Origin: Thermoplasmatales archaeon SG8-52-3
Lineage (GTDB): Archaea; Thermoplasmatota; E2; DHVEG-1
Assembly (NCBI GenBank): GCA_001595915.1
Contig: LSSG01000019.1
Coordinates: forward strand, 5,408-69,407
Length of the DNA: 64,000 bases
Reading direction: 5' to 3'
A model generated the notes under the pieces. The model did not search any database. It saw only the letters and a list, made by a program, of their open reading frames with translations, and was not told where the DNA came from. The translations under genes and the position numbers were made by a program. Positions 5,267 through 36,951 of the stretch are shown one piece after another (position 1 is the stretch's first letter; each line of letters opens with the position of its first letter).

Positions 5267-5288
5267 TAATTTTAGAGGTAGAAATTTT

Positions 5289-5666: not shown

Positions 5667-5709
5667 TTAGTAAGTATTCATAGAATACAAGATTGGAGGA
5701 AGAATCAAT

Positions 5710-7323: not shown

Positions 7324-7333
7324 ATTGATAAAA

Positions 7334-8182: not shown

Positions 8183-8195
8183 GAGGTATGTAAAT

Positions 8196-9385: not shown

Positions 9386-9443
9386 TTTATAGTAAATAAT
9401 AAATCTGAAATATTTGTTTATTAACTTTAGATTGGAGGTTCCT

Positions 9444-9836: not shown

Positions 9837-9850
9837 AGAGGCATATTAAT

Positions 9851-15911: not shown

Positions 15912-15933
15912 ATTTAAATTTGGGGAGGAATTA

Positions 15934-17559
15934 ATGCAGAAAAATGAGGGATATGATAATTTATACAAGAAGTTTAAATGGAACGTTCCAAAATATTACA
16001 ATTTTGGTTTTGATGTTGTTGATAAATGGGCAGAAGACAGAACAAAACTTGCATTAATATCAATTGATAGAACTGGTAGAAGAGATAGATATCATACTTT
16101 TAGGGATTTATCAGTTGAATCCAATCGTTATGTAAATGCTTTAAAACGAATTGGTATAAAAAAAGGTGATAGAGTACTTGTAATATTACAAAGTATTCCT
16201 GAATGGTATATTGCTTTAATTGGAATGTTTAAACTTGGTGTAATTCCAATGCCTGGTACAGTTCTATTAACTTCAAAAGACATTGAATATAGAGTAAATC
16301 GTGCTGAAGCAAATATGATTTTTACAGATTTAAATCATGCAGACCTTGTTGATGGAATTAAATCAAAATGTCCAACACTCAAATATTTAATGCTTGTGGA
16401 TGGAAAAAGAAAAGGATGGTTAAACTATCTTGAGGAAATGGATAAATCTTCTTATGAATGTATACAAAAAGATTTTGGTAAAACTAAATCAACTGATTCA
16501 ATGCTTATATATTTTACATCAGGAACCACGGGTCCACCTAAAATGGTACTTCATACACATAGCTATCCTCTAGGTCATGAGGTAACTGCTAGATTTGCTC
16601 AATCACTGACAGATAAGGATTTACATTGGACTGTTTCAGAAACTGGATGGGCAAAAGCTGCTTGGGGAAAGCTTTTTGGTCAAATGCTTGTCGGTGCTGC
16701 TGTAATCCAATGGGAAACACCAGGAAGATTTGATGCTGATGGTTTATTGTGGGCATTGGAGAGATATGGAGTAACCTCTTTTTGTGCACCACCAACGGTT
16801 TATCGTTTATTAATTCAAATGGATTTAAAAAAATATAATTTAAAACTACGTCATTCTATGAGTGCAGGTGAACCGTTAAACCCTGAGGTAATTCGTGTTT
16901 GGAAAGATACTTTTGGTTTAGAAATCTATGATTTTTATGGACAAACTGAAACTGTATGCGTTCTGTCAAATTATCCATTTATGCCAATAAAATATGGTTC
17001 AGTTGGCAAGCCAACACCAGGTCATGATGTAAGAATTGTTGATGATAATGGAAATGAATTACCAGCAAATGAAGAAGGAAATATTGCTCTTTATATTGAT
17101 AAGGTCCGTCCACCAGGACTCTTCAAGGAATACTGGAAAGATAAAGAAGCAATGAAAAAATCATTTAGAGGAAACTATTATTTTACAGGTGATAGAGGTT
17201 ATAAAGACGAAGATGGTTATTTCTGGTTTGTAGGAAGAGATGATGATGTAATAAAATCGTCTGGTTATAGAATAGGTCCTTTTGAAGTAGAATCAGCATT
17301 GATGGAGCATGATGCAGTTGCAGAATGTGCTGTTATTGGATCAAATGACCCAAAAAAAGTTAGAGGTATTGTTGTAAAAGCAGTAATAGTTCTCTCAAAA
17401 GGTTATAAACCATCAGAAAGACTTACTAAAGAATTACAAGATCATGTAAAAAAAACAACTGCACCTTACAAGTATCCAAGAATTATTGATTATGTTGATG
17501 AGCTTCCAAAAACAATATCTGGAAAAATTTTAAGAAGAGAGTTAAGAAAAAACAATTAA
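15934..17559 (+). CDS. AMP-forming acyl-CoA synthetase (medium-chain/aromatic-acid-CoA-ligase-like)
   Basis: MLIYFTSGTTGPPKMV is the AMP-binding motif. Also YGQTET, GDRGYKDEDGYFWFVGRDDDVIKSSGYRIGPFEVE, PKTISGKILRREL. Confidence 0.85.
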   Translation: MQKNEGYDNLYKKFKWNVPKYYNFGFDVVDKWAEDRTKLALISIDRTGRRDRYHTFRDLSVESNRYVNALKRIGIKKGDRVLVILQSIPEWYIALIGMFKLGVIPMPGTVLLTSKDIEYRVNRAEANMIFTDLNHADLVDGIKSKCPTLKYLMLVDGKRKGWLNYLEEMDKSSYECIQKDFGKTKSTDSMLIYFTSGTTGPPKMVLHTHSYPLGHEVTARFAQSLTDKDLHWTVSETGWAKAAWGKLFGQMLVGAAVIQWETPGRFDADGLLWALERYGVTSFCAPPTVYRLLIQMDLKKYNLKLRHSMSAGEPLNPEVIRVWKDTFGLEIYDFYGQTETVCVLSNYPFMPIKYGSVGKPTPGHDVRIVDDNGNELPANEEGNIALYIDKVRPPGLFKEYWKDKEAMKKSFRGNYYFTGDRGYKDEDGYFWFVGRDDDVIKSSGYRIGPFEVESALMEHDAVAECAVIGSNDPKKVRGIVVKAVIVLSKGYKPSERLTKELQDHVKKTTAPYKYPRIIDYVDELPKTISGKILRRELRKNN

Positions 17560-17561
17560 TT

Positions 17562-18767
17562 TTATTTATATGGTAAAAATTCTTTTCCCAACAATTCTCG
17601 TCCAATAATTATTCTCATAATATTCATTGTACCTTCTGCACCAATAGAATAAGACCTTACACCTCTTATGCCCATTTCAACAGGAAACTCTTTTGTATAA
17701 CCAAGTGCACCTAACCAATCTGCAACTTCATTCATAACACCAAATGCATAGATTGGAGCTCGAAGTTTTGCAATAGCTGCAGCTAGTGCTACATCATTAT
17801 GATTGGCCTTTTTATCCTTATACATTCTATCCATTACCCAGGCAGCACGATAGACTTGGAGTTTTACTGCATCAATATTACAATGATGTTCTGCTAAAGG
17901 AAACTGAATTCCTTCATAACTTCCAAGAGGTCTACCAAATGCTTTACGATTTTTTATATGTTCAATGCCAAGTTCTAAAGCAGCTTCAGATGCTCCTACA
18001 CAAGTAGCTCCAATTAAAACACGTGCTGCTGAAAAACCCTCCATAGCATAGTAGAAACCTCTGTTTAAATCTCCAATTAGATTATAATCTGGAAGTTCAA
18101 CATTATTCATAGTAAAACCTCCAGTTGAAATCCCCATTCTACCCATATCCTCAAACAAGGTTGTTTCAATTTTTTTCATATCTTTTAAAGGAACAGCAAA
18201 AAATGAAAAACCTTTATGACCTTTAGATGGGTCGGTTCTTGCAAGAGTAAGATGAACACCTCCCCAGTTACTAGACTCTGATATACCACTAATGTATATT
18301 TTCTCACCATTAAGTATCCAATTTTTCCCTTTTTTTTCTGCCTTTGTTTTGGCAGCACCTAAAATATCAGATCCACCCTCAGGTTCTGTTACAGCAATAC
18401 CACAGAAAGCTTCTCCAGAGGTTACTTTATTTAAATATTCCTTTTTAATTTTATCTGTACCGTATCTACTGAAAATAAAACCCCATGCTGCCTCAACAAG
18501 ATAAAGTACAGGTATTGCTAAACTAATATCTGCTCGACCTAGTTCTTCAGCTGCAATACTAGCCATAGTCCAGTCAACACCTGCTCCTCCATAATCTTGT
18601 GAAGCAGTAGGAGCTAGTAAACCAAGTTTTCCCATATCCTTTATTATTTCCACTGGAATTTTTTTATTAGTATCAATTTCTCTAACCCTTGGTTTAATTT
18701 TCTTCTGAGCAAAATCACGAACTGTTCTTCTCCAAATTTCTTGTTCTTCAGTCCAACTAAAATCCAT
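17562..18767 (-). CDS. Acyl-CoA dehydrogenase
   Basis: MDFSWTEEQEIWRRTVRDFAQKKI…GIAVTEPEGGSDILG…GALGYTKEFPVEMGIRGVRSYSIGAEGTMNIMR. GGAGGAGG lies upstream. Confidence 0.85.
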   Translation of the reverse strand: MDFSWTEEQEIWRRTVRDFAQKKIKPRVREIDTNKKIPVEIIKDMGKLGLLAPTASQDYGGAGVDWTMASIAAEELGRADISLAIPVLYLVEAAWGFIFSRYGTDKIKKEYLNKVTSGEAFCGIAVTEPEGGSDILGAAKTKAEKKGKNWILNGEKIYISGISESSNWGGVHLTLARTDPSKGHKGFSFFAVPLKDMKKIETTLFEDMGRMGISTGGFTMNNVELPDYNLIGDLNRGFYYAMEGFSAARVLIGATCVGASEAALELGIEHIKNRKAFGRPLGSYEGIQFPLAEHHCNIDAVKLQVYRAAWVMDRMYKDKKANHNDVALAAAIAKLRAPIYAFGVMNEVADWLGALGYTKEFPVEMGIRGVRSYSIGAEGTMNIMRIIIGRELLGKEFLPYK

Positions 18768-18905
18768 CTTTTTTTTACCTCCTCCAGTACCCTTCGGTTA
18801 GGAGGAGTATCATAAAATCGTTATAATAAGTTTGTTATAATTTTAGCTTTCTATCAGGAGATAGAAATTTATATAATTAATTTAATACGGAGTCGGGGAG
18901 AAAGA

Positions 18906-20114
18906 ATGGCTTTCAAAAATACATTTATACCTTATGGAGGATATTGGAGTACACCATTTTGTGCTTGGCAAAAAAGTTTTCAGAACCTTCATGCAGTTAA
19001 ATTTGCTGCTGAGATAGGTTCAAGATTTCTGAAAGAAAAAAAAATATCACCCAAAGAATTTGATGAATTGATTTTTGGAATTACAATACCTCAAACATCT
19101 ATTTTTTATGGTACGCCTTGGTTAGCAGGAATGCTTGGTGCAGAAAATATAACAGGACCTATGATTGGTCAAGCTTGTGCAACAGGTGCAAGAGGTGTTG
19201 AATTAGCAGCTCTTGCTATAGAATCTGGATTAAGAAAAAATATTTTTGTTGTTTATGCAGATAGATGTTCTAATGGTCCTTTACTAGTTTATCCAAACCC
19301 TGAAGCACCTGGTGCTACTCAAGATAAAGAAAGCTGGGTTTGGGATAACTTTGGAAATGATCCTTTTGCAAAAAATGCAATGGTTGAAACTGCTGAAAAT
19401 GTAGCAAAAGAAATAGGAATTTCAAGAGAAGATCAAGATAAAATTACTCTTCTTCGTTACCAACAATATATTGATTCAACAAAAAACAATAGAGCCTTTC
19501 AAAAAAAGTATATGATATCACCAGTTGAAGTGAAAGATAGAAAAGGAAGAAAAGTTATTTCAACAGTTGATGGTGATGAAGGAATTTTTCCAACTACTAC
19601 AGAAGGTCTTTCAAAACTTAGACCAGTAATACCTAATGGTACTGTTACTTTTGGAACCCAAACTCATCCTGCTGATGGAAATTGTGGAATTATTGTTACA
19701 AATCGCGAGAAAGCAAAAGAATTAAGTAAAAATAAAAAAATAGAAATTCAAGTCTTATCATATGGTGAAGGTAGGGCAAAAAAGGGTTATATGGCAAAGG
19801 CAATTATTCCAGCAGCTAAAATGGCTCTCAAACAAGCAAATTTATCTATTAAAGATATCAGTGCAATAAAAACACATAATCCTTTTGCAGTAAATGATAT
19901 TTACTTTTGCAGAGAAATGGATATTGACTGGAAAGATATGAACAATTATGGTTCTTCACTGATATATGGACATCCACAAGCACCTACTGGTGCAAGACTA
20001 ATAATTGAACTTATTGAGGAATTGGTTGAAAAGGATGGAGGTTTGGGTCTATTTGATGGTTGTGCCGCTGGTGATACAGGTGCTGCTATTGTTATTAAGG
20101 TTAGTATTGAATGA
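18906..20114 (+). CDS. Thiolase-family acyl-CoA acetyltransferase
   Basis: MIGQACATGARGVELAA is the nucleophile Cys region. The C-terminus is NPFAVNDIY…GHPQAPTGARLI…GCAAGDTGAAIVI. Confidence 0.8.
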   Translation: MAFKNTFIPYGGYWSTPFCAWQKSFQNLHAVKFAAEIGSRFLKEKKISPKEFDELIFGITIPQTSIFYGTPWLAGMLGAENITGPMIGQACATGARGVELAALAIESGLRKNIFVVYADRCSNGPLLVYPNPEAPGATQDKESWVWDNFGNDPFAKNAMVETAENVAKEIGISREDQDKITLLRYQQYIDSTKNNRAFQKKYMISPVEVKDRKGRKVISTVDGDEGIFPTTTEGLSKLRPVIPNGTVTFGTQTHPADGNCGIIVTNREKAKELSKNKKIEIQVLSYGEGRAKKGYMAKAIIPAAKMALKQANLSIKDISAIKTHNPFAVNDIYFCREMDIDWKDMNNYGSSLIYGHPQAPTGARLIIELIEELVEKDGGLGLFDGCAAGDTGAAIVIKVSIE

Positions 20115-20140
20115 TACTTTTTAATTTTGGATGAATAGCT

Positions 20141-22180
20141 ATGAATATACAAAAAGTGGGAATTATTGGTGCTGGAAACATGGGTAGTGGAATTGCGCAG
20201 AAGGTTGCTCAAGAAGGTATATCTGTAGTAATGTTAGATGTTGAAGAAAAATTTGTTAAAAATGGTTTAAATAATATTAAAAAAACTCTTTCAGAAGCAG
20301 TTGAAAGAAAGATATTATCCGAGGATCAAACAGATGAAATATTAAATCGCATTTCTGGAACTACAAATAAAGATGAATTAAAAGATGCAGATATTATTAT
20401 TGAAGCAGTATTTGAAGATTTTGAGGTTAAAAAGAATCTTTTTAATAATCTTGATAAAATTTGTAAAGAAAAAACAGTATTTGCTACTAATACCTCTTCT
20501 TTTTCAATATCTGAATTAGGGTCATCAATAAAAAGAAATGATAAGTTCATTGGTCTACATTTTTTCTATCATCCTGCTAAAAACCGTTTACTAGAAATTA
20601 TACCTGGTAAAAATACATCTCAAAATACAATAGATTTAGCTGAGGTCTTTTCAAAGATAATAGGAAAAACTGCGATAAATGTATTAGATTCACCAGGATT
20701 TGCTGTAAATCGTTTTTTTGTACCATGGTTAAATGAATCAACTAGAATACTTGAAGAAAATATTGCAAACATTCCAACAATCGATGATGTGGCAAAAAAG
20801 GTTTTTAAAATACCAATTGGCCCGTTTGAACTGATGAATTTGACAGGTATTCCAATTGCATATCACTCGACTGTAAGTCTGGGAGAAAAATTAGGTGATT
20901 TCTATAATCCTAGTAATTTACTAAAAAATCAATTTGAAAAAAAAGAGGAATGGAATCTTAATGGACAAATTGATTTATCAAAAGTAAAGATAATAGAAGA
21001 GCGTTTACTTGGTACGGTTTTTATTGTAGCATGCTACCTTGTAGAAGAAGGTGTATCAAGTATTGAGGATATTGATAGAGGAGCAAAAATTGGTCTTAGA
21101 TGGAGAAGAGGTCCATTTGAAATAATGAATAAATATGGAATAGAACGCTCTTATGAAATCGTTAAAAAATATGTTGAAAAATATCATATGCTTGGGATAC
21201 CTTCAATTCTTGAGAAACAAAATAAATCTAAAAAAATTTGGAAATTTAATTTTGTTGATTTGAAAATCAAAGATAACATTGCTAAAATTATAATAAACAG
21301 GCCAGAAGCAATGAACTCGATTAATGAGGAAGTAATAAATCAACTTGATAAAAAATTCATTGAAGCAAACAACAATTCAAAAGTAAAAGGAATCGTACTT
21401 GAGGGTGCGGGAAAAGCTTTTATTGCTGGTGCAGACATTCAATACTTTATTAATAAAATCGAACAAAACAAAATAGATGACATATACAATTTTACAAAAT
21501 ATGGGCATTCTGTAATAAATAAGATTGATGAATCTAACAAACCAGTTATTGTAAAACTTGATGGAATTGCCTTGGGCGGTGGAGCTGAAATTGCACTTGC
21601 TGCAGATACTATTGTTGCAACAGAAAAGGGTTGTATTGGTTTTCCAGAAACCGGTATCGGAATTTATCCAGGTTTAGGAGGAACTCAGAGAACTACAAAA
21701 TATATTGGAAAAGAACTAGCAAAATACCTTATATTTACTGGTAAAATCCTTGATGCGAAATCTGCTCACTCAATTGGTTTAATTGAATATGTTTTTAATC
21801 AAGATGAAATAGACAATAAGATATTTGAACTTGTTTTAGGCGGTAATGTAATAAAAAAATCAAATAAAAGACCATTAAAACTACCTGAAAATTTTCAAAA
21901 AATAAAGAATTTTTTCATAGATGAAAATATCGATTCTATATTATCTGGAAGTAAAGACTTAGATGAATTAGGACAAAAACTAGCAAAAATTATATCTTAT
22001 AAGGCGCCAATAGCAATCAAACTTGCAAATAAAATCATTGATGAAGGAAATCTTCTAGATCTAAAAGAAGGATTAAAACTAGAACTTGACAGCCTATCAA
22101 AGATTTTTTCAACCGATGATGCTTTAGAAGGGCTTCGATCAATAATAAAAAGACAAAGACCAAACTTTAAAGGAAATTAG
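20141..22180 (+). CDS. Bifunctional 3-hydroxyacyl-CoA dehydrogenase (N-terminal) / enoyl-CoA hydratase (C-terminal)
   Basis: N-terminus: VGIIGAGNMGSGIAQ…FATNTSS…GLHFFYHPAKNRLLEIIPG…SPGFAVNR. C-terminus: IIINRPEAMNSIN…VLEGAGKAFIAGADI…DGIALGGGAEIALAAD. Confidence 0.9.
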   Translation: MNIQKVGIIGAGNMGSGIAQKVAQEGISVVMLDVEEKFVKNGLNNIKKTLSEAVERKILSEDQTDEILNRISGTTNKDELKDADIIIEAVFEDFEVKKNLFNNLDKICKEKTVFATNTSSFSISELGSSIKRNDKFIGLHFFYHPAKNRLLEIIPGKNTSQNTIDLAEVFSKIIGKTAINVLDSPGFAVNRFFVPWLNESTRILEENIANIPTIDDVAKKVFKIPIGPFELMNLTGIPIAYHSTVSLGEKLGDFYNPSNLLKNQFEKKEEWNLNGQIDLSKVKIIEERLLGTVFIVACYLVEEGVSSIEDIDRGAKIGLRWRRGPFEIMNKYGIERSYEIVKKYVEKYHMLGIPSILEKQNKSKKIWKFNFVDLKIKDNIAKIIINRPEAMNSINEEVINQLDKKFIEANNNSKVKGIVLEGAGKAFIAGADIQYFINKIEQNKIDDIYNFTKYGHSVINKIDESNKPVIVKLDGIALGGGAEIALAADTIVATEKGCIGFPETGIGIYPGLGGTQRTTKYIGKELAKYLIFTGKILDAKSAHSIGLIEYVFNQDEIDNKIFELVLGGNVIKKSNKRPLKLPENFQKIKNFFIDENIDSILSGSKDLDELGQKLAKIISYKAPIAIKLANKIIDEGNLLDLKEGLKLELDSLSKIFSTDDALEGLRSIIKRQRPNFKGN

Positions 22181-23181: not shown

Positions 23182-23247
23182 ATAAATTAATTTTTTCTTT
23201 TTATAATCATCGAGATATTGACAATAAATTTTTTTACTTCTAAAAAA

Positions 23248-24672: not shown

Positions 24673-25440
24673 TTATTTATTTTTCCAAACCGGTTGTCTT
24701 TTTTCAAGAAATGCAGAAAGTCCCTCATTTGCATCGATTGTTTTCATAAGCTCATTTAAGTAAATATCTTCAATTTTCTTAATAGAATCAGAATAATTTT
24801 TAGTGGCTCCCTCTATAATTGCTCGCTTTGTAAGCTTTAGAACAATTGCACTATTACTAGCAATTTTTTCATTTATAAGTTTTTCAGCTTCTTCATCAAA
24901 ATTATCAACAGGTAGTACATGGTTAACAAGACCTATTTCTTTTGCTTCATTTGCACTAATCACTTCACCCGTGATAATAAGCTCTAATGCTTTTTTATTA
25001 TACATTAATTTAGGAAAAATTGCAGCAGCTATTGGAGGAAATACTCCAACTTTTATCTCAGGTTGCCCAAATTTTGATTTTTCAGAAGCAATTACTATAT
25101 CACAAAATGTTGCAACTTCACAACCACCTCCAAGGGCAGCACCATTTACAAGTGCAACTGTGGGAGCATTTATATTATGAAGATTAGTAAAAATTTCATG
25201 AAACACTTGAATCATTTCTTTAACTTTTTCTTTTGTATGATCGGATATATCAACTCCAGCTGAAAATGCTTTTCCATTTGCATTGAATATAAGAACTTTT
25301 AAATTTTTATCTTTAAATACTTTCAATGCTTGATTAATTTCTTTCATCATCTCTATGTTAAGAATATTGAGAGGTAAATTATTGAAAGTAATTTTTCCAA
25401 TCATGTTTTTCTCTTCAATTTGAATTAATTTAAAATCCAT
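24673..25440 (-). CDS. dch: Enoyl-CoA hydratase (crotonase). Candidate cyclohexa-1,5-dienecarbonyl-CoA hydratase (Dch/BzdW-like).
   Basis: LIFNANGKAFSAGVDI…VNGAALGGGCEVATFCDIVIAS…FGQPEIKVGVFP. It is 255 aa. The specific role is inferred from the adjacent had/oah-like genes. Confidence 0.6.
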   Translation of the reverse strand: MDFKLIQIEEKNMIGKITFNNLPLNILNIEMMKEINQALKVFKDKNLKVLIFNANGKAFSAGVDISDHTKEKVKEMIQVFHEIFTNLHNINAPTVALVNGAALGGGCEVATFCDIVIASEKSKFGQPEIKVGVFPPIAAAIFPKLMYNKKALELIITGEVISANEAKEIGLVNHVLPVDNFDEEAEKLINEKIASNSAIVLKLTKRAIIEGATKNYSDSIKKIEDIYLNELMKTIDANEGLSAFLEKRQPVWKNK

Positions 25441-25454
25441 TTTGTCACCCCAAT

Positions 25455-26627
25455 TTAGATAATATTGATTGTTGCTCTACCAAGAATCTTACCTCCTTCA
25501 AGATCATGAATTGCATTTTCCAACTTGTCTAATGTATAATCTTTGTTAGTTACTAGTAAGTTTAAATCAACAATTCCATCTTCTACAGCTTTTACATTTT
25601 CTTCCAACTCATTCATCGGACAAGCCCAAGTTCCATTAATTGTTAAATATTTGTCCATAATTTTTTGATTAAGAAAGTCTTGAACAGGTCTTGGAGGCCA
25701 ACCAACTTGAATAACAGTTCGGTTTTTACTAACTGTTTCAACTGCTACTGGAAAGGTATCAGCAACCCCAGAACAATCAAGCACACAGTCAACCTGGAAT
25801 TTATCTTCTGCAAAATGAGAACTAATATGTCTTGCTAGTCCAGAAATTGCTTTTGCTTTTTCTCTGCCCGAAAGGTCATTGATATTAATTTTATTTTCTT
25901 CGAAAAAGGATTTCATATTAACTGTATGAGTAGCACCTAGTTTTTTTGCAAAATCAAGCTTTTTATCAAAAATGTCGACTGCAAGGATGTTTTTTGCTTG
26001 AAAATATCTTGAAGAAAGGTTTACGGTAGGTCCACCTACACCACCAACTCCAAAAACAACTACATTTTTTCCTCTTAACCAATGAGTTTTTTGTTGAAAC
26101 AAATTTTTATAGTTTGATGAATTTTGAACTATATGCGGAGGAACAGATCTACTTTTTAAGGCATGAAATGGAGTAGATACCGCATCTGGAATTATACAGG
26201 CTTCATCAAGAGGAACGCTATCCTTTATTCTAAATGCATATTTTGAAGGAACAGCAATATATTCTGCATCCCCACCATGAACTCCATGACCAATAAATAT
26301 TGAATTTTTACATCTATTTGTCAATCCTTCTCTGCATGCAGGACAATTTTCATCTTCACAACCAGGATAAACTGGTGGAATGATTACATGGTCACCTTCT
26401 TGTAAATTTTTTGAAGATTTACCAATTTCTTCAACGATACCTGCAATTTCATGGCCTATGATTAGTGGGGGTTTGAATGGAACAAAACCGCGATATAAAG
26501 TTCTATCTGTACTACATAATCCAGTGTATTTTGACCTAATTAGAACTTCTGATTCTTTAATGACTGGATCTTTAAAATCAGTTACAATATTTAGCTCTTC
26601 TTTTCCATATAAAACCGCAGCTTTCAT
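25455..26627 (-). CDS. had: Zn-dependent MDR alcohol-dehydrogenase-family enzyme. Candidate 6-hydroxycyclohex-1-ene-1-carbonyl-CoA dehydrogenase (Had/BzdX-like).
   Basis: GLCSTDRTLYRG…PLIIGHEIAGIVEEIG…GCEDENCPACREGLTNRC is the structural-Zn Cys motif. VVVFGVGGVGG is the Rossmann motif. The specific role is inferred from context. Confidence 0.6.
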   Translation of the reverse strand: MKAAVLYGKEELNIVTDFKDPVIKESEVLIRSKYTGLCSTDRTLYRGFVPFKPPLIIGHEIAGIVEEIGKSSKNLQEGDHVIIPPVYPGCEDENCPACREGLTNRCKNSIFIGHGVHGGDAEYIAVPSKYAFRIKDSVPLDEACIIPDAVSTPFHALKSRSVPPHIVQNSSNYKNLFQQKTHWLRGKNVVVFGVGGVGGPTVNLSSRYFQAKNILAVDIFDKKLDFAKKLGATHTVNMKSFFEENKININDLSGREKAKAISGLARHISSHFAEDKFQVDCVLDCSGVADTFPVAVETVSKNRTVIQVGWPPRPVQDFLNQKIMDKYLTINGTWACPMNELEENVKAVEDGIVDLNLLVTNKDYTLDKLENAIHDLEGGKILGRATINII

Positions 26628-26761
26628 ATCTTTCCCCCGGCTTCTGTGATAAGATGAAGAGTATATAATATTATTTGTTTAAGGGAGTATTTTATTAAAA
26701 AAATTATAAATAACATTTACATTATTCAGCATAAATACTTTGAACAAGAGGGAGGTTAAAT

Positions 26762-27898
26762 ATGTCTTTAGATTGGTTGCCAAAAGATGATAAAATAAAG
26801 AACCATGATTTATGGAGTGATGAATATTTTAGTCAAGAACCACCAAGCATTATTTATAAATTAAAACCTGTTGTCGACAATGAGGGAAACAAAGTAAAGG
26901 GTTTGAATTCCGCTTGGATTATACTTAATAATCCTGATCAATACAATTCATATACAACAGATATGGTAAAGGGAGTTATTGCAGGATTTCATAAAGCATC
27001 TATGGATAGAAGTGTAGTTGCAGCAATATTTACTGCAGTTGGAGATAAGGCTTTTTGTACTGGTGGAAACACAAAAGAGTATGCTGAATATTATAGTGGT
27101 AGACCTAATGAATATGGATTATACATGGATCTTTTCAATGCTATGGTTGATTCAATTTTAAATTGTAAAAAACCAACTATATGTCGTGTAAATGGTATGC
27201 GAGTTGCTGGTGGTCAAGAAATAGGTATGGCCTGTGATATTGCAGTATCATCAGACTTAGCAATATATGGTCAAGCTGGACCACGTCATGGCTCTGCACC
27301 TGATGGTGGATCCACTGATTTTCTCCCTTGGATGCTATGTATTGAGGATGCTATGTGGAATTGTATTTCTTGTGAATTATGGTCTGCTTATAAAGCAAAA
27401 AGATTAAGTCTCATTAGCAAAGTTGTTCCTATTTTAAAACAAGATAACAAATTCATAAGAAATCCAACAGTGATAATAGATAAATACATTCAAGACGGAG
27501 AAATTGTTTATGGAGAATTTTTAAAGGGTGAAAAATTTAAAAAAGCCCGTGAAATCATAAAATCAACTCCGACTGATTTTAAACTATTAGACAAAGCTGT
27601 TGACGACATTGTATGGACTTATACAAATCTCATGCCTGGATGTCTTATGAAATCTATAGATGGAATTAGAATGAAAAAGAAGTTTTTCTGGGATCAAACA
27701 AAACTAGCAAATAGACATTGGCTTGCAGCAAATATGGCAACTGAGGCGTTTCTTGGATTCAATGCATTCAATAATAGAAAAACAACTGGAAAAGATGTAA
27801 TTGATTTTGTTAAATACAGACAACTTTTAGCAGAAGGTCATCCATTTGATGATAAACTAAAAGAAGCAGTATTACCAAAACCATTGAAAAAATCCTAA
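26762..27898 (+). CDS. oah: 6-oxocyclohex-1-ene-1-carbonyl-CoA hydrolase (Oah/BamA/BzdY-like ring-cleaving crotonase)
   Basis: This is a 378-aa enlarged crotonase. YNSYTTDMVKGVIAGFHKAS…GDKAFCTGGNTKEYAEYYSGRPNEY…ICRVNGMRVAGGQEIGMACDIAVSSDLAIYGQAGPRHGSAPDGGSTDFLP closely matches my recollection of BamA/Oah sequences. Confidence 0.8.
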   Translation: MSLDWLPKDDKIKNHDLWSDEYFSQEPPSIIYKLKPVVDNEGNKVKGLNSAWIILNNPDQYNSYTTDMVKGVIAGFHKASMDRSVVAAIFTAVGDKAFCTGGNTKEYAEYYSGRPNEYGLYMDLFNAMVDSILNCKKPTICRVNGMRVAGGQEIGMACDIAVSSDLAIYGQAGPRHGSAPDGGSTDFLPWMLCIEDAMWNCISCELWSAYKAKRLSLISKVVPILKQDNKFIRNPTVIIDKYIQDGEIVYGEFLKGEKFKKAREIIKSTPTDFKLLDKAVDDIVWTYTNLMPGCLMKSIDGIRMKKKFFWDQTKLANRHWLAANMATEAFLGFNAFNNRKTTGKDVIDFVKYRQLLAEGHPFDDKLKEAVLPKPLKKS

Positions 27899-27901
27899 AT
27901 A

Positions 27902-28321
27902 TTATTGTTTTTCTATTGTATAATAGAGTTTAATTTCAGGTATTTCTTCAAACATCCGAGGTACAACTTTTACCTTCATATTAATCTTGAGATCATTTTC
28001 TGGAATATCTCCAATCCAAGATATCAAGCGCCCACCTTCTTCAAGGTCAACAACTCCCAAAGTATAGGGTGCAATATCTTCAAAACCTTTTGGTGCTGCA
28101 TAAATTTTTGTAAAACTATGAAGTTTACCCCTACCTGAAAATTCAATCCATTGAAAAGTATCACTCATACATTTTAGACAATCTGCACGGGGTGGAAAAT
28201 ACAATTCACCACATATCTTACATTTTGTTCCCATTAGTTTTCCCTTTTGAAGATAATCTGAAAATTTATCCACCTTAGTATACGGTGTAAAATTTATTTT
28301 TCCAAAGTATTTGAAGGGCAT
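27902..28321 (-). CDS. DUF35 Zn-ribbon/OB-fold acyl-CoA-associated protein
   Basis: LMGTKCKICGELYFPPRADCLKCMS (CxxC…CxxC), then an OB-fold region. It lies immediately downstream of an SCP-x-type thiolase. Confidence 0.8.
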   Translation of the reverse strand: MPFKYFGKINFTPYTKVDKFSDYLQKGKLMGTKCKICGELYFPPRADCLKCMSDTFQWIEFSGRGKLHSFTKIYAAPKGFEDIAPYTLGVVDLEEGGRLISWIGDIPENDLKINMKVKVVPRMFEEIPEIKLYYTIEKQ

Positions 28322-28325
28322 AATT

Positions 28326-29477
28326 TCACCTTTTTAGAATATTTACAAAGGTATATTGTCCAATTCCACCAACATTATGTGTAAGACCAATTTCTGCACC
28401 AGAAACTTGTCTTTTTCCTGCCTCCCCTCTTAATTGTTTTACGATTTCAGTAGTCATTGAAACACCTGTTGCACCAACAGGGTGACCCTTAGCTTTCAAA
28501 CCTCCATCTACATTTACTGGGGTTTGACCACCAATGTATGATTGTTTTTCTTCAATGAACTTTCCACCTTTACCTTTATCACAGAAACCAAGATTTTCAT
28601 ATGCCATGATTTCTGCTATTGTAAAACAATCATGAACATCTGCTACAGATATATCAGATGGTTTTACTTTAGCTTGTGAATATGCTTGTTTTGCTGCTTC
28701 TATTGCACTTGGAATTTCAACAAGATTAGGTCTTCTAAGTAGAGACATTTGTGCAGAAGCAGAACCTAATCCCTCAAACCAAATCGGTGTGTCATTGAAT
28801 TTCTTTGCTAGTTTTTCATTTGTTAAAATAACACAAGCCGCACCATCGGCATTAGCACAACAATCAAAGACATTAACAGGAGATGCAACATCATCTGAAC
28901 CAAGTACTCTTTCCTTTGTAACTTCCTTTTGAAAAAATGCATATGGGTTCATTGCACCATAAAAGTGGTTTTTCACAGCAACAAGAGCCATTTGTTCCTT
29001 TGTTGTGCCAAACTCATACATGTGCCTTTTTGCATATAATGCATAATAACCAGGAAATGTAGTTCCAAAAATTGATTCCCATTGAACGTCTCCCACTCTA
29101 CCCATTAAAGCTAAAATTTCCTCTGTAGATAATTCCCTCATTTTTTGCACTCCGATTACTGCAACGATATCATGCATTCCTGATTTAATTGACATATAGG
29201 CTGTTCTAATAGCAGCACTTCCAGATGCACAGGCTGCTTCAGTAAGCCAAGTTGATTTTGGATTCATTCCAACATATTCTGCTACCACTCCAGGTAACGA
29301 ACGCTGCATATGATATTCAGGAACTGATCCAACGATTAATGCATCGATATCTTCTCTTCTAAGATTATTTGCATTTTCTATTGCTTCTTTAAAGGGTTCA
29401 AAAGCTAATTCCTGAACAGTTGCATCACTACGATTTCCAAATTTTCCATGACCTATACCAATAATTCCTACTTTCAA
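28326..29477 (-). CDS. SCP-x/archaeal-type thiolase (DUF35 partner)
   Basis: LTEAACASGSAAIRTAYMSIKSG…DVHDCFTIAEIMAYENLGF…VNVDGGLKAKGHPVGATG. Confidence 0.85.
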   Translation of the reverse strand: MKVGIIGIGHGKFGNRSDATVQELAFEPFKEAIENANNLRREDIDALIVGSVPEYHMQRSLPGVVAEYVGMNPKSTWLTEAACASGSAAIRTAYMSIKSGMHDIVAVIGVQKMRELSTEEILALMGRVGDVQWESIFGTTFPGYYALYAKRHMYEFGTTKEQMALVAVKNHFYGAMNPYAFFQKEVTKERVLGSDDVASPVNVFDCCANADGAACVILTNEKLAKKFNDTPIWFEGLGSASAQMSLLRRPNLVEIPSAIEAAKQAYSQAKVKPSDISVADVHDCFTIAEIMAYENLGFCDKGKGGKFIEEKQSYIGGQTPVNVDGGLKAKGHPVGATGVSMTTEIVKQLRGEAGKRQVSGAEIGLTHNVGGIGQYTFVNILKR

Positions 29478-29492
29478 TATTTCACCAACTAT

Positions 29493-30236
29493 CTAAATGT
29501 ATTGACCACCATCAACCTTAATTACCTCACCTGTTATGTGTCTTGATTTTTCACCACATAAAAAAAGAACTACATTTGCAACGTCTTCTGTAGATGCAAT
29601 CCGGCCCAAAACAGTTTCATCTACTGCCTTTTGAAGAAATTCAGTAGGAATATTTTTTGCCATTTCAGTCATAACCATTCCTGGTGCAACTGCATTTACA
29701 TTAACATTGAATTTACCAAGCTCTTTGGCAAGAGCTTTAGTAAGTGATATTATACCGCCTTTTGAAGCTGAGTAATTGCACTGTCCAAATTTTCCTCTTA
29801 GACCATTGATTGATGTGATATTTACAATTTTTCCAGATCTTTTGTCCTTGAAATATGAAGCTGCTAATTTATTATAAATAAAATAACCCTTAAGATTAAC
29901 GTTAATAACATTATCCCAATCATTTTCACTCATTTTCCAAATTACTCGGTCAATATTTATTCCAGCATTGCAGACAAGGATATCGAGTCCTCCAAACTCC
30001 TCAATTACTTTTTTAAACATTCCTTCTGCATGACTATAATTAGTCACATCTGCCTTAATAATAAGACAAGTCTTCCCAAACTTTTCAATTTTTTTAGCAA
30101 CTTCTTTTGCCTCAGTATCATGTTTACGATAATTAATCGCTACATTAGCACCTTGCCGAGCTAGTTCAACTGCGATGGTTGCACCAATTCCAATGCTTCC
30201 ACCAGTAATAATTGCAGATTTTCCTTCAAACTCCAT
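29493..30236 (-). CDS. Short-chain dehydrogenase/reductase (FabG-like 3-oxo/3-hydroxyacyl reductase)
   Basis: AIITGGSIGIGATIA…NAGI…YSASKGGIISLTKALAKE. ATG at 30236 follows GGAGGAG. The track's 30290 start adds 18 aa with no RBS. Confidence 0.85.
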   Translation of the reverse strand: MEFEGKSAIITGGSIGIGATIAVELARQGANVAINYRKHDTEAKEVAKKIEKFGKTCLIIKADVTNYSHAEGMFKKVIEEFGGLDILVCNAGINIDRVIWKMSENDWDNVINVNLKGYFIYNKLAASYFKDKRSGKIVNITSINGLRGKFGQCNYSASKGGIISLTKALAKELGKFNVNVNAVAPGMVMTEMAKNIPTEFLQKAVDETVLGRIASTEDVANVVLFLCGEKSRHITGEVIKVDGGQYI

Positions 30237-30445
30237 TTTTGCTCCTCCATTGTAAGAATATATAACAAATGAATTTTGATAGTATGCCAAACTATTATTT
30301 TATTTTTTGGTGAAATAAGTTTTTTATATATTCTTATTAAATAATTATAAATTAATTTATTTGACTATTAAATAAAATTATTTTAGAATTTTTGAAGTAT
30401 AAAAAAAGTTATTTATTGGATTTTAACCTCAATTATATTTTTAAC

Positions 30446-31785: not shown

Positions 31786-31836
31786 TTAAATTTTTATTCT
31801 ATTATCTATTAAAAGAGAATAAACAAAAATATTTAT

Positions 31837-31869
31837 ATATAGCTTTAATATAGCTATAATATAGCTATG
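31837..31869 (+). repeat. Three tandem 11-nt units (ATATAGCTTTA / ATATAGCTATA / ATATAGCTATG), a candidate operator/promoter array
   Basis: Read directly. The core ATATAGCT recurs with exact 11-bp phasing at 31837, 31848 and 31859. The array ends 8 nt before the ATG at 31878. Confidence 0.6.
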
Positions 31870-31877
31870 GGGTTTTT

Positions 31878-32015: not shown

Positions 32016-32026
32016 GGATGATAAAA

Positions 32027-32504: not shown

Positions 32505-33629
32505 TTGATTGAACAATTCAAGCAAATTGAAAAAAATCGACATGATTATGCTAAAGATTGGAAAAAAAAGAAAGATGGAAAGGTATTAGGTTACTTTTGT
32601 ACCTATGTACCTGAAGAGATTTTATATGCTGCTGGAGTGCTACCTGTACGTATTTTAGGTAGTCACGAACCTCAAGATGTAACTGAACCCCACATTTTTG
32701 GTATGTTCTGTCCTTTTTGTAGAGATTGTCTTGCTCAAGGGCTAAAAAACAGATATAAATATCTTGATGGTTTAATGATAGCTCAATCTTGTCTCCATAT
32801 TAGACAGGCTTATACAAGTTGGATTAAGCATAGACCTGTAGATTTTAGTAAATTTCTTTGTATGCCTCATAAGGTACAGAGCCCACATGCATATGAATTC
32901 TTGACTGAAGAATATAAAGTTTTTAAAAAGGAATTGGAGAATTGGACAGGCAATAAAATTACAGACAACGATTTAGACAAAGCTATTGAAGTTTATAATG
33001 AAAATCGCCGTCTTATGAGGAAATTATATGATCTAAGGAAGCGTGATAAACCACCTTTAACAGGTGAACAAGTTATGGAAGTTGTTATGGCAATGCAGAT
33101 GACTGATAAAGCTGAGCATAATAAGATGTTGAAGGAACTTTTAAAAAAAATAGAGAATTATATCCCAGATAGAGAAACAGGTAGTCGATTGATGATACTT
33201 GGTTCTGAGGATGATGACACTGTTTTTATGAATATGGTAGAAGAATCTGGTGCTACCTTTGTGATAGATGATCATTGTACGGGATCAAGATATTTTTGGA
33301 ATGAGGTAGAAGATGGTAAAGATCCATTATCATCAATAGCAGCAAGATATGTAAATAGGATTCCCTGTCCTTCTAAGGATTGGGAAGAACGAAAAAGAAT
33401 TCCTCATATTTTGAACCTTTGTAAAGATTGGAAAGTTGATGGAGTTATAATAATGCAGCAGAAGTTCTGTGATCCGCATGAACTTGATTTTGTAGCAATA
33501 AAGAAAGCATTAGAGGATGCTGGTATACCAACATTATTCTTAGAGTTTGATGTAACTGTGCCAATTGGACAGTTTAAGATTCGTGTTGAAGCATTTCTTG
33601 AAATGATTGGTGAGGAGGATTTATTCTAG
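32505..33629 (+). CDS. bzdN: Benzoyl-CoA reductase class I, gamma-type subunit (BzdN/BcrC-like; HgdB-type fold)
   Basis: [28 protein letters not shown]…[11 protein letters not shown]…[17 protein letters not shown]. It is the first of four tightly linked genes. Confidence 0.7.
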
Positions 33630-33640: not shown

Positions 33641-34981
33641 ATGGAACAAGAAGCAATATATCCAACTGAGAAATTGAAATGCTGGAAGAAGGTAAAAGAT
33701 ATTCGAATGAAGTTTTATCAGGATTATGCAGAAGCACATGATAAGGGTGGTCTTCGTTGGGCTGGTGGAGCTTGGACTTTTGATGCGATTCCAGCGGGTT
33801 TAGGAGAAGATGTTTATCCAATAACTAGTGAACCATATAGTGCAACAATTGCTTTTGATAAGGAGCTCTCACTAGAATGTATGGAGGCAACAGAAGTAAA
33901 AGGTTATCCTCGAGATTTATGTTCTTATATGAGAAATTACTGGGGTTCAATTATAACCGATAAATTTGCATTTGGATACAAAGATGGGGAGTTTGTCCCT
34001 AGATTCCAAGGTGCAAAACCTATAGGATTTCCAAAACCAGATTTCATCTGGCAGGATCATATTTGTTGTTCACATGCCAAATGGTATCAGGTCGTATCAG
34101 ATCTTGAAGGTGGAATTCCTATGTTTACGGTTGATAATGCTGTTGGACCTTCTAATGAACTTACAGATAGTAAAATAAAATATGTTGTAGAACAATTGAA
34201 AGATGGAATAAAGTTTTTGGAAAAAACAACTGGTAGGGATTATGATGATGAACTGATGTTCAAGGCAATTAAGAATCATTTTGTTTCAACTTCTAAATGG
34301 GCAGAGTCGTGTGCATTAAATAAAGCCATACCTGCTCCACTAGATGAAAAAACTATTTATTCACTTTATGTTCTTGGAACTCTTCAAAAAGCTGGTAAGC
34401 AGGTTGCAGATTTTTATGAAAAAGACCTTCTTCCAGAAGTAAAAGATCGGGTCAAAAGAGGAATTGCTGCGGTTCCTAATGAACGTGTACGTGTGATGTC
34501 TGATACTCAACCTCCATGGAGTTTTTTAAGTATATTTAGATATTTAGAAAAATTTGGATGTGTCAGTGTTGGTTCATTATACACTTTTGGTTTGATTGGC
34601 CAATGGGAGGTAAAAAAAGATGGAACCTGGGGTGCCAAAAAAATTCCAGATGTTGAATTTACAAGCAGAGATCAGGCACTCTATGAATATGTTAAATATG
34701 AATTACATAAACCTGAATGGCAGCATTTCTATTCATGTCATCTGAAGAGTGATATGATGATTCGAATAGCAAAAGAATGGAAACTTAATGGAGTAATGCT
34801 TCATTACAACAGAGGTTGTGAGGGACTTACTGTTGGAATTGCTGAAAATAGACTAGCTTTACTTGATGCTGGATTTCCAGTAATGGCATTTGAAGGAAAT
34901 AATGCAGATGAAAGAGAGTTTGATGAGGCTAGAACTAAGGCAAAAATTAATGCATTTATGGAGACGCTTGGAGTAAAATGA
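33641..34981 (+). CDS. bzdO: Benzoyl-CoA reductase class I, beta-type subunit (BzdO/BcrB-like; HgdA-type fold)
   Basis: It is 446 aa. [38 protein letters not shown]…[12 protein letters not shown]…[22 protein letters not shown] lies upstream. Confidence 0.7.
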
Positions 34982-34994: not shown

Positions 34995-35774
34995 ATGATA
35001 ACCATGGGTATTGATTTAGGTGCAAAAAATATTAAGGTAGTGATTTTGAAAGATAATAAGATAATTGGAAAATCAAATGTTCTCGCAGGATTTGATGTAG
35101 AAAAAAGCGCCCAGCAAGCAATTGATAAAGCTCTCAAAGAAGCAGGTATCACGAAGGATAAAATAGAAAAGACAATATCTACAGGAGCTGGAGATAAACT
35201 TGCTCCATTTTATGATGAGATCAAGTCGATTGTTGGATGTGATTCATTAGGAGCTGTATTTCTTCACCCTGCTGCAAGAAGTGTTATTGATGTAGGTGCT
35301 GAAGAAGGAAGAGGTATGAGATGTGATGAGACCGGAAAAATTATAGATTTTGAGGTAAATGAAAAATGTGCTGCAGGAGCAGGAGCCTTTACTGAGGCTA
35401 TGTCTCGCGCACTTGAGGTAAAACTTGAAGAAATTGGCCCTCTTTCTTTGAAAGCTACAGAAGATATTCCAATGAATGCACAGTGTACAGTGTTTGCAGA
35501 ATCAGAGGTTGTAACAATGGTACATAACAAAGTTTCAAAGGCAAATATGGCTAAAGCAGTTCATGATGCAATGGCAAGCAGGATTACATCAATGGTTAGA
35601 AAGATAGGCTTTAACAAAGATGTAGTTCTTGTTGGAGGAGTAGCAAATAACATTGGTTTTGTTGATTCTCTTAATAAAGATCTTGACCTTAAAGTTGTGA
35701 TACCAAAAGATCCAGAGTTTGTTGGAGCTTTAGGTGCTGCACTTGCTGCAGCTGGTTGGAAGGGAGGTAAATAA
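34995..35774 (+). CDS. bzdP: Benzoyl-CoA reductase ATPase subunit, delta-type (BzdP/BcrD-like; BcrAD_BadFG family)
   Basis: MGIDLGAKNIKVVIL…IDVGAEEGRGMRCDETGKIIDFEVNEKCAAGAGAF…AQCTVFAESEV…LVGGVANN. Confidence 0.75.
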   Translation: MITMGIDLGAKNIKVVILKDNKIIGKSNVLAGFDVEKSAQQAIDKALKEAGITKDKIEKTISTGAGDKLAPFYDEIKSIVGCDSLGAVFLHPAARSVIDVGAEEGRGMRCDETGKIIDFEVNEKCAAGAGAFTEAMSRALEVKLEEIGPLSLKATEDIPMNAQCTVFAESEVVTMVHNKVSKANMAKAVHDAMASRITSMVRKIGFNKDVVLVGGVANNIGFVDSLNKDLDLKVVIPKDPEFVGALGAALAAAGWKGGK

Positions 35775-35775: not shown

Positions 35776-36648
35776 ATGGAAGAAAAAGCTGAACTTTGGA
35801 GATGGACAGAATCTCGTTGGACGAATACTGACCTAAATTGGAAAGGAAAATTGATTACTTCTGGAGTTGATGTAGGTTCAGTTAGTTCACAGGCTGTAAT
35901 ACTTGCTGATGGAGAGCTCTATGCTTATTCTAATATGAGAACTGGTTCTGATAGTCCTGATTCTGCTATGAAGGCAATAAACTGGGCTATGGAAGATACA
36001 GGTCTTAAATTGGATGATTTAACCTATACTGTTGGTACTGGATATGGTCGAGTTAATGTTCCATTTAGTCAACGAGCCATTACAGAAATTGCTTGTCATG
36101 CTCGTGGTGGTAACTTCATGTATGGGCCTTCAGTTAGAACAATTTTGGATATGGGTGGTCAGGATTGTAAAGCTATTCATTGTGATGAAAGAGGAAAGGT
36201 TACAAATTTTCTAATGAACGATAAATGTGCGGCGGGAACAGGACGAGGAATGGAAGTATTTGCCGATCTTTTGGGTGTATCTATTAATGACGTTGGAGAT
36301 CTTTCTCTTGATGTTGATGAGGAACCACAGCCAGTAAGTAGTACTTGCGTAGTATATGCAAAAACCGAGGCTACAGGTTTACTTAGAGAAGGTTGGCCAA
36401 AGAATAAAGTTTTAGCAGCATATTGTTCAGCAATGGCTCATAGGATAATGACACTACTAGAAAGAATTGGTGTTGAGGAAGATTTTGCAATAACAGGTGG
36501 AATAGCAAAGAATAAAGGGGTAGTTACAAGACTTGAGAAAGAGGTTGGAATAAAAATCATGAAGACCACAGATTATGATACACAAATTGCAGGAGCCCTT
36601 GGTGCAGCACTTTTTGCTAAAGCTTTAGTTGAGAAAGGGAAAAAATAA
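35776..36648 (+). CDS. bzdQ: Benzoyl-CoA reductase ATPase subunit, alpha-type (BzdQ/BcrA-like; BcrAD_BadFG family)
   Basis: ATG 35776 follows GGGAGGT and lies 1 nt after the preceding stop. SGVDVGSVSSQAVIL…LDMGGQDCKAIHCDERGKVTNFLMNDKCAAGTGRG…SSTCVVYAKTE…ITGGIAKN. Confidence 0.75.
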   Translation: MEEKAELWRWTESRWTNTDLNWKGKLITSGVDVGSVSSQAVILADGELYAYSNMRTGSDSPDSAMKAINWAMEDTGLKLDDLTYTVGTGYGRVNVPFSQRAITEIACHARGGNFMYGPSVRTILDMGGQDCKAIHCDERGKVTNFLMNDKCAAGTGRGMEVFADLLGVSINDVGDLSLDVDEEPQPVSSTCVVYAKTEATGLLREGWPKNKVLAAYCSAMAHRIMTLLERIGVEEDFAITGGIAKNKGVVTRLEKEVGIKIMKTTDYDTQIAGALGAALFAKALVEKGKK

Positions 36649-36663: not shown

Positions 36664-36951
36664 ATGATAGCAAATTATGGATATAAGGATGGTTCTGGGG
36701 ACTATTTCATTGCAATTGATACTGACAAATGTAATGGATGTAAGGATTGTATTGATGCTTGTCCATATGGAGTATTGGATGTTGGTCCTGATGAAAACGA
36801 TCCTCTATCTGATGAAGAGGTAGCATTTGTAACAGAAGCCGAAAGAAAAAAGATAAAATACACCTGTGCTCCTTGTAAACCAATGAACAATAGACCACCT
36901 TTACCATGTATGGCTGTATGTAAAAAAGAAGCAATTTCACATTCCTGGTGA
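36664..36951 (+). CDS. Ferredoxin (2x[4Fe-4S]-type with insertion), the putative electron donor to the reductase (BzdM/Fdx-like)
   Basis: CNGCKDCIDACPYG … CAPCKP…C…VCKKEAI. Its position directly after the reductase genes is the main argument. Confidence 0.65.
   Translation: MIANYGYKDGSGDYFIAIDTDKCNGCKDCIDACPYGVLDVGPDENDPLSDEEVAFVTEAERKKIKYTCAPCKPMNNRPPLPCMAVCKKEAISHSW

Follow-up and report, generated by a model that had tools for sequence, protein, structure and literature searches.

A probable bzd-type benzoyl-CoA ring-processing module with a non-canonical dehydrogenase in Thermoplasmatales archaeon SG8-52-3

Within a stretch of 64,000 nucleotides from Thermoplasmatales archaeon SG8-52-3 (contig LSSG01000019.1, positions 5,408 to 69,407; the whole stretch is hereafter called the window), three neighbouring genes encode a 255-aa crotonase, a 390-aa zinc-dependent alcohol dehydrogenase (ADH) of the medium-chain dehydrogenase/reductase (MDR) type, and a 378-aa crotonase-related protein. 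The SG8-52 metagenome-assembled genomes (MAGs) belong to Marine Benthic Group D (MBG-D; Thermoprofundales). An initial interpretation made without database searches (the sequence-only reading) had likened this trio to Dch, Had and Oah, or BzdW, BzdX and BzdY, of the benzoyl-CoA pathway, and its description of the gene layout was borne out. The three open reading frames (ORFs) are present on the strands it gave, and the same genes were called independently by the Joint Genome Institute (JGI) on the sediment-metagenome contig Ga0209536_100000462. The two minus-strand genes, which it had placed 14 nt apart, are separated by positions 25441-25454, from the ADH stop to the crotonase start. The 378-aa gene, described as divergent, begins on the opposite strand at a distance of 134 nt from the ADH start, and the core peptide quoted for its product lies within that ORF. 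The ADH and the crotonase are 100% identical to AYK22_00810 and AYK22_00805, respectively, which are annotated as "hypothetical proteins" of this archaeon.

The Pfam matches of the trio are far beyond chance. The 255-aa protein matches ECH_1 (3e-54) and the 390-aa protein ADH_N together with ADH_zinc_N, while the ECH_1 match of the 378-aa protein (8e-32) covers residues 52-224 only, so that the latter represents an enlarged crotonase. G+C content is about 30% across the window and without anomaly at the trio. When seven orthologous spacers between the ADH and the 378-aa gene were aligned, two conserved AT-rich, TATA-like blocks became apparent (GTATATAAT..TTATTTG and TTAAAAAAGATATAAATAAT), and each side of the spacer carries a G-rich ribosome-binding site (GGGAGG before the ATG of the 378-aa gene, GGGGGA before that of the ADH). 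This spacer is therefore regarded as a putative promoter region. All features discussed are collected in Table 1.

The identity of the 378-aa protein is the firmest element of the locus. It matches the Oah model TIGR03200 with 571.2 bits (cutoff 464.45) over positions 1-360 of 360, whereas the sister families score low (BadI, 107 bits against a cutoff of 467.6; MenB, 83-91 bits). The Oah/BamA assignment of the sequence-only reading is thereby upheld, and by these scores the protein is not of the ordinary enoyl-CoA hydratase or DpgC type, the outcome that had been named as contradicting it. The best match in the PDB is MenB with only 84 bits, and no Oah structure was present among the PDB entries searched. 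NCBI or JGI already use the name Oah for hundreds of homologues with 74-94% identity, among them bacterial ones at 77%, and identity to Oah of classical anaerobic degraders amounts to 74-77%. By scanning species-representative genomes with an Oah alignment, 80 Oah loci were obtained (labelled L0xx). Across loci L007-L081, from bacteria of more than 10 phyla and Asgard Hodarchaeota, Oah is 68-77% identical to the window protein, and the neighbouring genes are far less conserved (crotonase, 38-56%; ADH, about 26-35%). Such high conservation suggests strong constraint on Oah, inter-domain transfer, or both. On these grounds the 378-aa protein is a bona fide Oah/BamA with predicted ring-cleaving activity.

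The sequence-only reading had also proposed that the target regions of published bamA primers should be examined for conservation, and here the outcome differs between protein and DNA. For the classical marker primers SP9 and ASP1 (PMC3579730), the target sites lie at window positions 26940-26961 and 27213-27230, about 290 bp apart as expected. The encoded peptides QYNSYTT and GQEIGM are intact, but the DNA shows 4 and 3 mismatches to SP9 and ASP1, respectively, one of the SP9 mismatches falling on the penultimate 3' base. AT-rich archaeal bamA genes may consequently be under-detected in PCR surveys.

For the 255-aa crotonase, the evidence comes mainly from its relationship to other crotonases encoded beside Oah. 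In phmmer searches it scores 243-296 bits against Oah-linked crotonases of about 20 loci from many phyla and at most 148 bits against any crotonase in the PDB. A neighbor-joining (NJ) tree separates Oah-linked crotonases from paralogous and fusion-domain crotonases with 100% bootstrap support and places the window protein on the Oah-linked side, where its clade falls within a 30-member subgroup (71% support) together with Hodarchaeota (69%) and genes at the bzdW position in Rhodocyclaceae. The catalytic residues E107 and E127 are invariant across 41 Oah-linked homologues, and JGI names the homologues dienoyl-CoA hydratase. On the other side, the score against the Dch model TIGR03189 (157.3 bits) falls short of the cutoff (292.5) and would speak against a Dch assignment, although that cutoff is uninformative here. 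None of the 41 Oah-linked crotonases reaches it (best, about 245 bits), not even where a bona fide Had is encoded next to them, as in Rhodocyclaceae and Syntrophaceae, and because all of them fail, the model does not discriminate as a Dch test in this setting; it seems too narrow for most of the Oah-linked family. The top NCBIfam match is generic (short-chain enoyl-CoA hydratase, 181 bits). The protein is thus accepted as a probable Dch/BzdW-type hydratase.

Genes for a Bzd-type class I benzoyl-CoA reductase (BCR) lie 4.6 kb from the trio, followed by a ferredoxin gene and a gene for an oxidoreductase of about 840 aa. BzdN, BzdO and BzdQ exceed the cutoffs of their equivalog models (Table 1), while the BzdP-like ATPase matched only a generic activase ATPase domain and no BzdP-specific model. 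The oxidoreductase scores 637-649 bits against the gene located beside BzdOPQ in the Rhodocyclaceae loci L066 and L073. The sequence-only reading would have been undermined had relatives failed to keep the trio together with BCR genes; in the Thermoplasmatota loci L003-L006, BzdNOPQ, the trio and a third gene group are in fact all co-located. This third group, an operon for a short-chain dehydrogenase/reductase (SDR), a thiolase and a DUF35 protein (27902-30290), is convergent on Oah and abuts it. Within 3 kb of Oah, an SDR occurs at 34 of the 80 loci and thiolase plus DUF35 at 16-18, often alongside a true Had, and the thiolase accompanies Oah in Thermoplasmatota as well as in many Deltaproteobacteria. 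The operon fits the 3-hydroxypimelyl-CoA dehydrogenase and 3-oxopimelyl-CoA thiolase steps. Farther upstream, putative lower-pathway beta-oxidation genes (14772..22180) are likewise co-located in Thermoplasmatota relatives. Family-level gene identities, equivalog membership of Oah and BzdN/O/Q, and conserved synteny are established by these observations.

Considering these data together, the trio is interpreted, with a probability of roughly 70%, as the ring-processing module of a bzd-type, ATP-dependent benzoyl-CoA pathway in an MBG-D (Thermoprofundales) archaeon. BzdNOPQ with the ferredoxin would convert benzoyl-CoA to cyclohexa-1,5-diene-1-carbonyl-CoA, which the Dch-type crotonase would hydrate to the Had substrate. 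The co-transcribed 390-aa ADH would then oxidize this alcohol with NAD+ to the 6-oxo compound, and Oah/BamA would add water and cleave the ring hydrolytically to 3-hydroxypimelyl-CoA. The SDR-thiolase-DUF35 set would form 3-oxopimelyl-CoA and split it into glutaryl-CoA and acetyl-CoA, with the upstream beta-oxidation genes finishing the products of the thiolase step. All of these substrates are predictions, above all that of the ADH.

The dehydrogenase indeed deserves separate consideration, since several lines of evidence weigh against its being Had proper. On the Had model TIGR03201 it reaches 107 bits (cutoff 338.65), and this model ranks only seventh or eighth among its NCBIfam matches, behind IolM, AdhP and Tdh. 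The solved Thauera Had (PDB 7QUL) is matched with 71 bits at a rank of about 28, against 102 bits for a generic Bacillus ADH. In an NJ tree of 96 MDRs, the 390-aa clade is monophyletic (100%), but its grouping with Had receives only 14% support. On purpose-built hidden Markov models (HMMs) of Had and of a second, Had-like class described below (class II), generic MDRs outscore the 390-aa ADH. A Foldseek search with an AlphaFold prediction of the enzyme (pLDDT, the predicted local distance difference test, 96; a model from a shallow alignment with pLDDT 55 was discarded) retrieved Thauera Had at rank 16 with a template modelling (TM) score of 0.78, within the band of generic MDRs, and did not single it out. 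Finally, among the substrate-pocket residues of Thauera Had (ThaADH) that were compared (Y48, M113, W302 and G303), L43 and F110 take the place of Y48 and M113. True Had, represented by the Oah-adjacent ADHs of Rhodocyclaceae, Syntrophaceae and Deltaproteobacteria, scores 454-597 bits on TIGR03201; the window ADH is about 26% identical to these enzymes and some 35-40 aa longer. By profile, tree and structure it shows no specific affinity to Had and lies outside that family, so that the name Had describes no more than its enzyme class.

Other features are compatible with a role at this step. The catalytic residues C42, T44, H65, E66 and D156 of ThaADH are kept as C37, T39, H58, E59 and D147, and the protein contains the structural zinc cysteines C89/C94/C97/C105, the NAD motif G192xGGxG197 and the NAD-type aspartate D217, although such zinc and NAD features are common to many MDRs and not specific to Had. 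A W-x-C motif in the pocket is shared by 6 of 6 members of the window clade and 14-15 of 16 true Had proteins but by only 3 of 65 generic MDRs, two of these three being the nearest outsiders of the 390-aa clade; G303 of ThaADH is replaced by alanine. Three insertions are specific to the clade: the zinc lobe is extended by 3 aa, the segment preceding Rossmann beta1 by about 17 aa and the cofactor domain by about 25 aa. In every Thermoplasmatota locus examined, the ADH gene lies 14 nt upstream of the crotonase gene and 111-245 nt divergent from Oah, an arrangement that persists out to the most distant members of the clade (70-73% identity), whose three genes have diverged in step and are 73/69/70% identical to those of the window. 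The window contains no other MDR ORF. The ADH is the candidate for the Had step, as its partner crotonase is of the Dch type, whose product is the Had substrate; this role is thus suggested by operon context and intact catalytic residues rather than by orthology.

The distribution of the 390-aa type (above 700 bits) is confined to Thermoplasmatota among the Oah loci compared. An exhaustive search of 1.84 billion representative sequences recovered it as a single 50% cluster together with fragments; among full-length relatives the next one has 40% identity, and no more than 24 representatives fall at E <=1e-30. The outsiders nearest the clade are a mixture of Had-like and Tdh/IolM-like MDRs, and in standard annotation the enzyme appears as "hypothetical" or "arabinose dehydrogenase-like". 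The two nearest outsiders, P0364 (40% identity; L082:300-2253) and P0366 (37%; L083:958-2879), are each followed by a crotonase of generic type that is 23-26% identical to that of the window, a pairing that weakly hints at acyl-CoA substrates for this MDR branch in general. Whether Thermoprofundales/MBG-D archaea have replaced the canonical Had (BzdX/BamQ) by this lineage-restricted MDR with its three insertions is judged an even bet.

A second class of Zn-ADHs near Oah was also noticed. These proteins of 340-357 aa, whose genes lie at a distance of 2-8 kb from Oah, occur in Hodarchaeota, Chitinophagales, Bacteroidetes, Gemmatimonadota and Fischerbacteria; their best NCBIfam family is Had, yet with 222-264 bits they remain below its cutoff, and they may constitute another unrecognised Had variant. 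A chain of relationship leading from Had through this class to the window ADH was considered and rejected: the ADH scores 216 bits on the class II HMM, similar to the value for true Had, but the median of generic MDRs is 254 bits.

Several alternative interpretations were weighed against the proposed module. In one of them the pathway operates as described, but the Had step is carried out by the SDR or by the 3HCDH domain of the upstream fusion protein, leaving the Zn-ADH to act on another hydroxyacyl-CoA or on an alicyclic alcohol from its partner crotonase. This would accommodate the lack of any specific sequence, profile or structural affinity between the 390-aa ADH and Had, as well as the existence of ten loci of at least 15 kb that combine Oah with a Dch-type crotonase but have no MDR-type ADH within 10 kb, six of which carry a FabG-like SDR (Table 1). 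Pairs of an ADH and a crotonase also exist outside benzoyl-CoA contexts, as P0364 and P0366 beside their unrelated generic crotonases illustrate. Yet the SDR co-occurs with true Had at many loci (e.g., L038, L049, L054 and L076) and, being operonic with the thiolase, is better suited to the 3-hydroxypimelyl-CoA step, while the partner crotonase of the ADH is of the very type that would supply the Had substrate and the trio is inherited as a unit. This interpretation is therefore considered unlikely, though it is the one among the alternatives that merits most attention.

It is considerably less probable that the trio acts on a different ring-CoA ester, through a BadK/BadH/BadI route via cyclohex-1-ene-1-carboxyl-CoA, on cyclohexanecarboxylate or on a substituted benzoyl-CoA analogue. 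The divergent dehydrogenase with its altered pocket (L43, F110) could mirror a modified substrate, the acyl-CoA dehydrogenases of the cluster give sub-cutoff matches to cyclohexanecarboxyl-CoA dehydrogenase models, and a second HGD-D/activase set in the window (see below) hints at further reductase chemistry. Nevertheless, the hydrolase passes the Oah equivalog and is as close to Oah of classical anaerobic degraders as given above, and BadH is an SDR rather than an MDR; a BadK/BadH/BadI-type reading was rejected on the scores of Oah versus BadI. Least probable of all is a fortuitous adjacency in which the crotonase and the ADH are ordinary genes of fatty-acid or alcohol metabolism that happen to lie beside Oah. 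Generic best NCBIfam matches for both proteins (for the ADH, IolM/AdhP-like models) might be read in this way, but in the tree the crotonase falls among Oah-linked crotonases from different phyla, apart from its paralogues, and among the loci examined no genomes were seen in which the 390-aa ADH clade regularly occurs without Oah or BCR. Chance adjacency can be set aside because the arrangement is conserved throughout the Thermoplasmatota loci examined and still holds where the ADH family is most divergent. The benzoyl-CoA ring-processing module thus remains the preferred interpretation.

Table 1. Positions of the trio, its neighbours and related features (window coordinates unless a locus label is given)
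Feature	Position	Strand	Basis
Crotonase, 255 aa; probable cyclohexa-1,5-diene-1-carbonyl-CoA hydratase (Dch/BzdW type)	24673..25440	-	ECH_1; Oah-linked clade
Zn-dependent MDR alcohol dehydrogenase, 390 aa; candidate functional replacement of Had/BzdX	25455..26627	-	ADH_N and ADH_zinc_N; gene context
Divergent intergenic region, ADH-Oah	26628..26761	.	Alignment of 7 orthologous spacers
Oah/BamA/BzdY, 378 aa; predicted 6-oxocyclohex-1-ene-1-carbonyl-CoA hydrolase	26762..27898	+	TIGR03200
DUF35/ChsH2-type zinc-ribbon and OB-fold thiolase partner	27902..28321	-	PF12172 and PF01796
Thiolase, 383 aa, archaeal/SCP-x type; probable 3-oxopimelyl-CoA thiolase (predicted substrate)	28326..29477	-	NF004720, 500 vs 420 bits
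FabG-like SDR; probable 3-hydroxypimelyl-CoA dehydrogenase (predicted substrate)	29493..30290	-	adh_short_C2 3e-62; JGI version 247 aa
BzdN, class I BCR subunit	32505..33629	+	TIGR03190, 469.5 vs 453.8 bits
BzdO, class I BCR subunit	33641..34981	+	TIGR03191, 614.7 vs 448.6 bits
BzdP-like ATPase subunit	34995..35774	+	BcrAD_BadFG 2e-50; CoA_E_activ domain 212 bits
BzdQ ATPase subunit	35776..36648 (JGI start; ORF-list start 35734)	+	TIGR03192, 436 vs 380.2 bits
2x[4Fe-4S] ferredoxin, 95 aa; probable BCR electron donor (BzdM-like), suggested by position	36664..36951	+	JGI call, Fer4 families (L001 19903-20190)
Fe-S/GltD-like NAD(P)H oxidoreductase, ~840 aa; probably ferredoxin-regenerating (BzdV-like)	37002..39515	+	Pfam, NCBIfam
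Acyl-CoA dehydrogenase	14772-15911	+	Pfam, NCBIfam
AMP-forming CoA ligase	15934-17559	+	Pfam, NCBIfam
Acyl-CoA dehydrogenase	17562-18767	-	Pfam, NCBIfam
Thiolase	18906-20114	+	Pfam, NCBIfam
3HCDH-crotonase fusion, 679 aa	20141-22180	+	Pfam, NCBIfam
Second-class ADHs near Oah	L010:16106-17131, L011:6476-7519, L016:18807-19832, L017:1034-2059, L035:14812-15837, L065:13316-14335, L078:5013-6083		
Oah and crotonase loci without nearby MDR	L007, L014, L015, L032, L039, L050, L058, L061, L072, L081		

Further genes of the window complete the picture of the locus. Between the 3HCDH-crotonase fusion and the trio, a gene for a NosD-like beta-helix protein, which carries a hydrophobic segment at its N-terminus, and a gene resembling NAD-dependent epimerases (22228-24567) occur at this position only in the window and in L003; the pair looks like an insertion because the fusion gene directly follows the crotonase in L005 and L006. 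An archaeal-type MiaB-like methylthiotransferase and a GNAT acetyltransferase (30505-32476) lie between the SDR-thiolase operon and BzdN, and the thiolase and the MiaB-like gene of the window are both of archaeal type. In a separate cluster at 51260-59595, a single HGD-D family subunit (399 aa) and a BcrAD/BadFG-type activase ATPase are encoded together with an AMP-forming CoA ligase and three B12-binding radical SAM paralogues of 476-482 aa; this cluster may represent another ATP-driven reductase or dehydratase system. The region 46260-48544 encodes a 609-aa aldehyde:ferredoxin oxidoreductase of the tungsten type and, after it, a poly-ferredoxin of 152 aa, and these genes are compatible with the phenylacetaldehyde/phenylacetate route reported for the lineage. 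A co-directional block (352-10405) encodes Hsp20, two rubrerythrins, a class-V aminotransferase, a hybrid-cluster protein (prismane), a ferredoxin-domain protein, nitroreductases and a ferredoxin:thioredoxin-reductase-like protein, a set of defences against oxidative and nitrosative stress that fits a strict anaerobe. The antisense ORFs at 24803-25180, inside the crotonase gene, and 26380-26649, inside the ADH gene, look like mechanical by-products of ORF listing, and tRNA and Rfam scans of the window returned no matches.

Compared with known systems, the locus resembles the bzd cluster of Azoarcus/Aromatoleum (BzdNOPQ-M-V-W-X-Y), represented here by the Rhodocyclaceae loci L066/L073, with which it has the bzd-type BCR, the ferredoxin and the BzdV-like oxidoreductase in common. 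The window crotonase belongs to the clade of the bzdW-position genes (46% identity), and Oah is about 70% identical. In contrast, the BzdX/Had slot is held in the window by an unrelated-looking 390-aa MDR, whereas Had of L066 scores 597 bits on TIGR03201. The arrangement differs as well: the ADH and crotonase genes diverge from Oah, while bzdW, bzdX and bzdY are co-directional, and the window adds an SDR-thiolase-DUF35 operon abutting Oah in an AT-rich archaeal host. With regard to the assignment made by the sequence-only reading, the BzdW and BzdY labels are apt and the cluster is bzd-type, but the Had/BzdX label applies only to the enzyme class, given the score on the Had model reported above.

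The enzymes of Thauera aromatica (Dch, Had and Oah) correspond to the trio in class and in order of reaction. The window ADH shares with ThaADH (PDB 7QUY) the C/H/E/D catalytic zinc ligands, the threonine proton relay, the four-cysteine structural zinc site, the NAD-type aspartate and W-x-C, but differs in overall identity (22% by Foldseek; 71 bits by phmmer), in its three insertions and in the replaced pocket positions Y48/M113, and the crotonase reaches only 157 bits on the Thauera-centred model TIGR03189. The BamR/BamQ/BamA system of Geobacter and Syntrophus provides a third comparison through the Syntrophaceae loci L037/L047. There, Oah/BamA is about 71% similar to that of the window, and, as in the window, a crotonase gene directly adjoins Oah and a 3HCDH-crotonase fusion of 679 aa is encoded nearby; unlike the window, these loci encode a true Had (454-475 bits on TIGR03201), and their crotonases fall into another subgroup (38-43% identity). 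Obligate anaerobes such as Geobacter and Syntrophus typically use a class II BCR, whereas the window locus has a class I BCR.

As a whole, the locus is an ordinary, well-supported member of a known pathway, possibly with a non-orthologous Had, and the conceptual gain is small: the benzoyl-CoA pathway is textbook knowledge, and metagenome studies have already described it for sediment archaea of the Thermoplasmata/MBG-D. The Bcr-Dch-Had-Oah route was already inferred for Thermoplasmata MAGs (Dong et al. 2019, PMC6472368), and PMC10581246 and PMC8329499 cite Liu et al. 2020 (Environ Microbiol 22:329) for BCR-dependent aromatic degradation in Thermoprofundales; these reconstructions thus concern the same lineage and the same predicted route as the window. 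As far as could be read, the account of Dong et al. 2019 contains no report of an Oah-adjacent dehydrogenase falling outside the Had family, and this non-canonical dehydrogenase is the sole element of the locus with some novelty.

The window nevertheless provides a well-resolved archaeal locus in which about 25 kb hold a bzd-type BCR with its electron-donor genes, the ring-opening trio and the genes for the two beta-oxidation steps that follow. It also exposes an annotation gap, since the expected Had belongs to a separate MDR clade, and automated pathway calls in an abundant benthic lineage will accordingly look incomplete; moreover, neither the curated Dch model nor the classical bamA primer pair appears broad enough to cover these sequences. 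Should the proposed replacement be true, HMM- and KEGG Orthology (KO)-based surveys would systematically report "had" as missing from the benzoyl-CoA pathway of archaea, and, together with the bamA primer mismatches, the archaeal share of anaerobic aromatic degradation in sediments would be under-counted.

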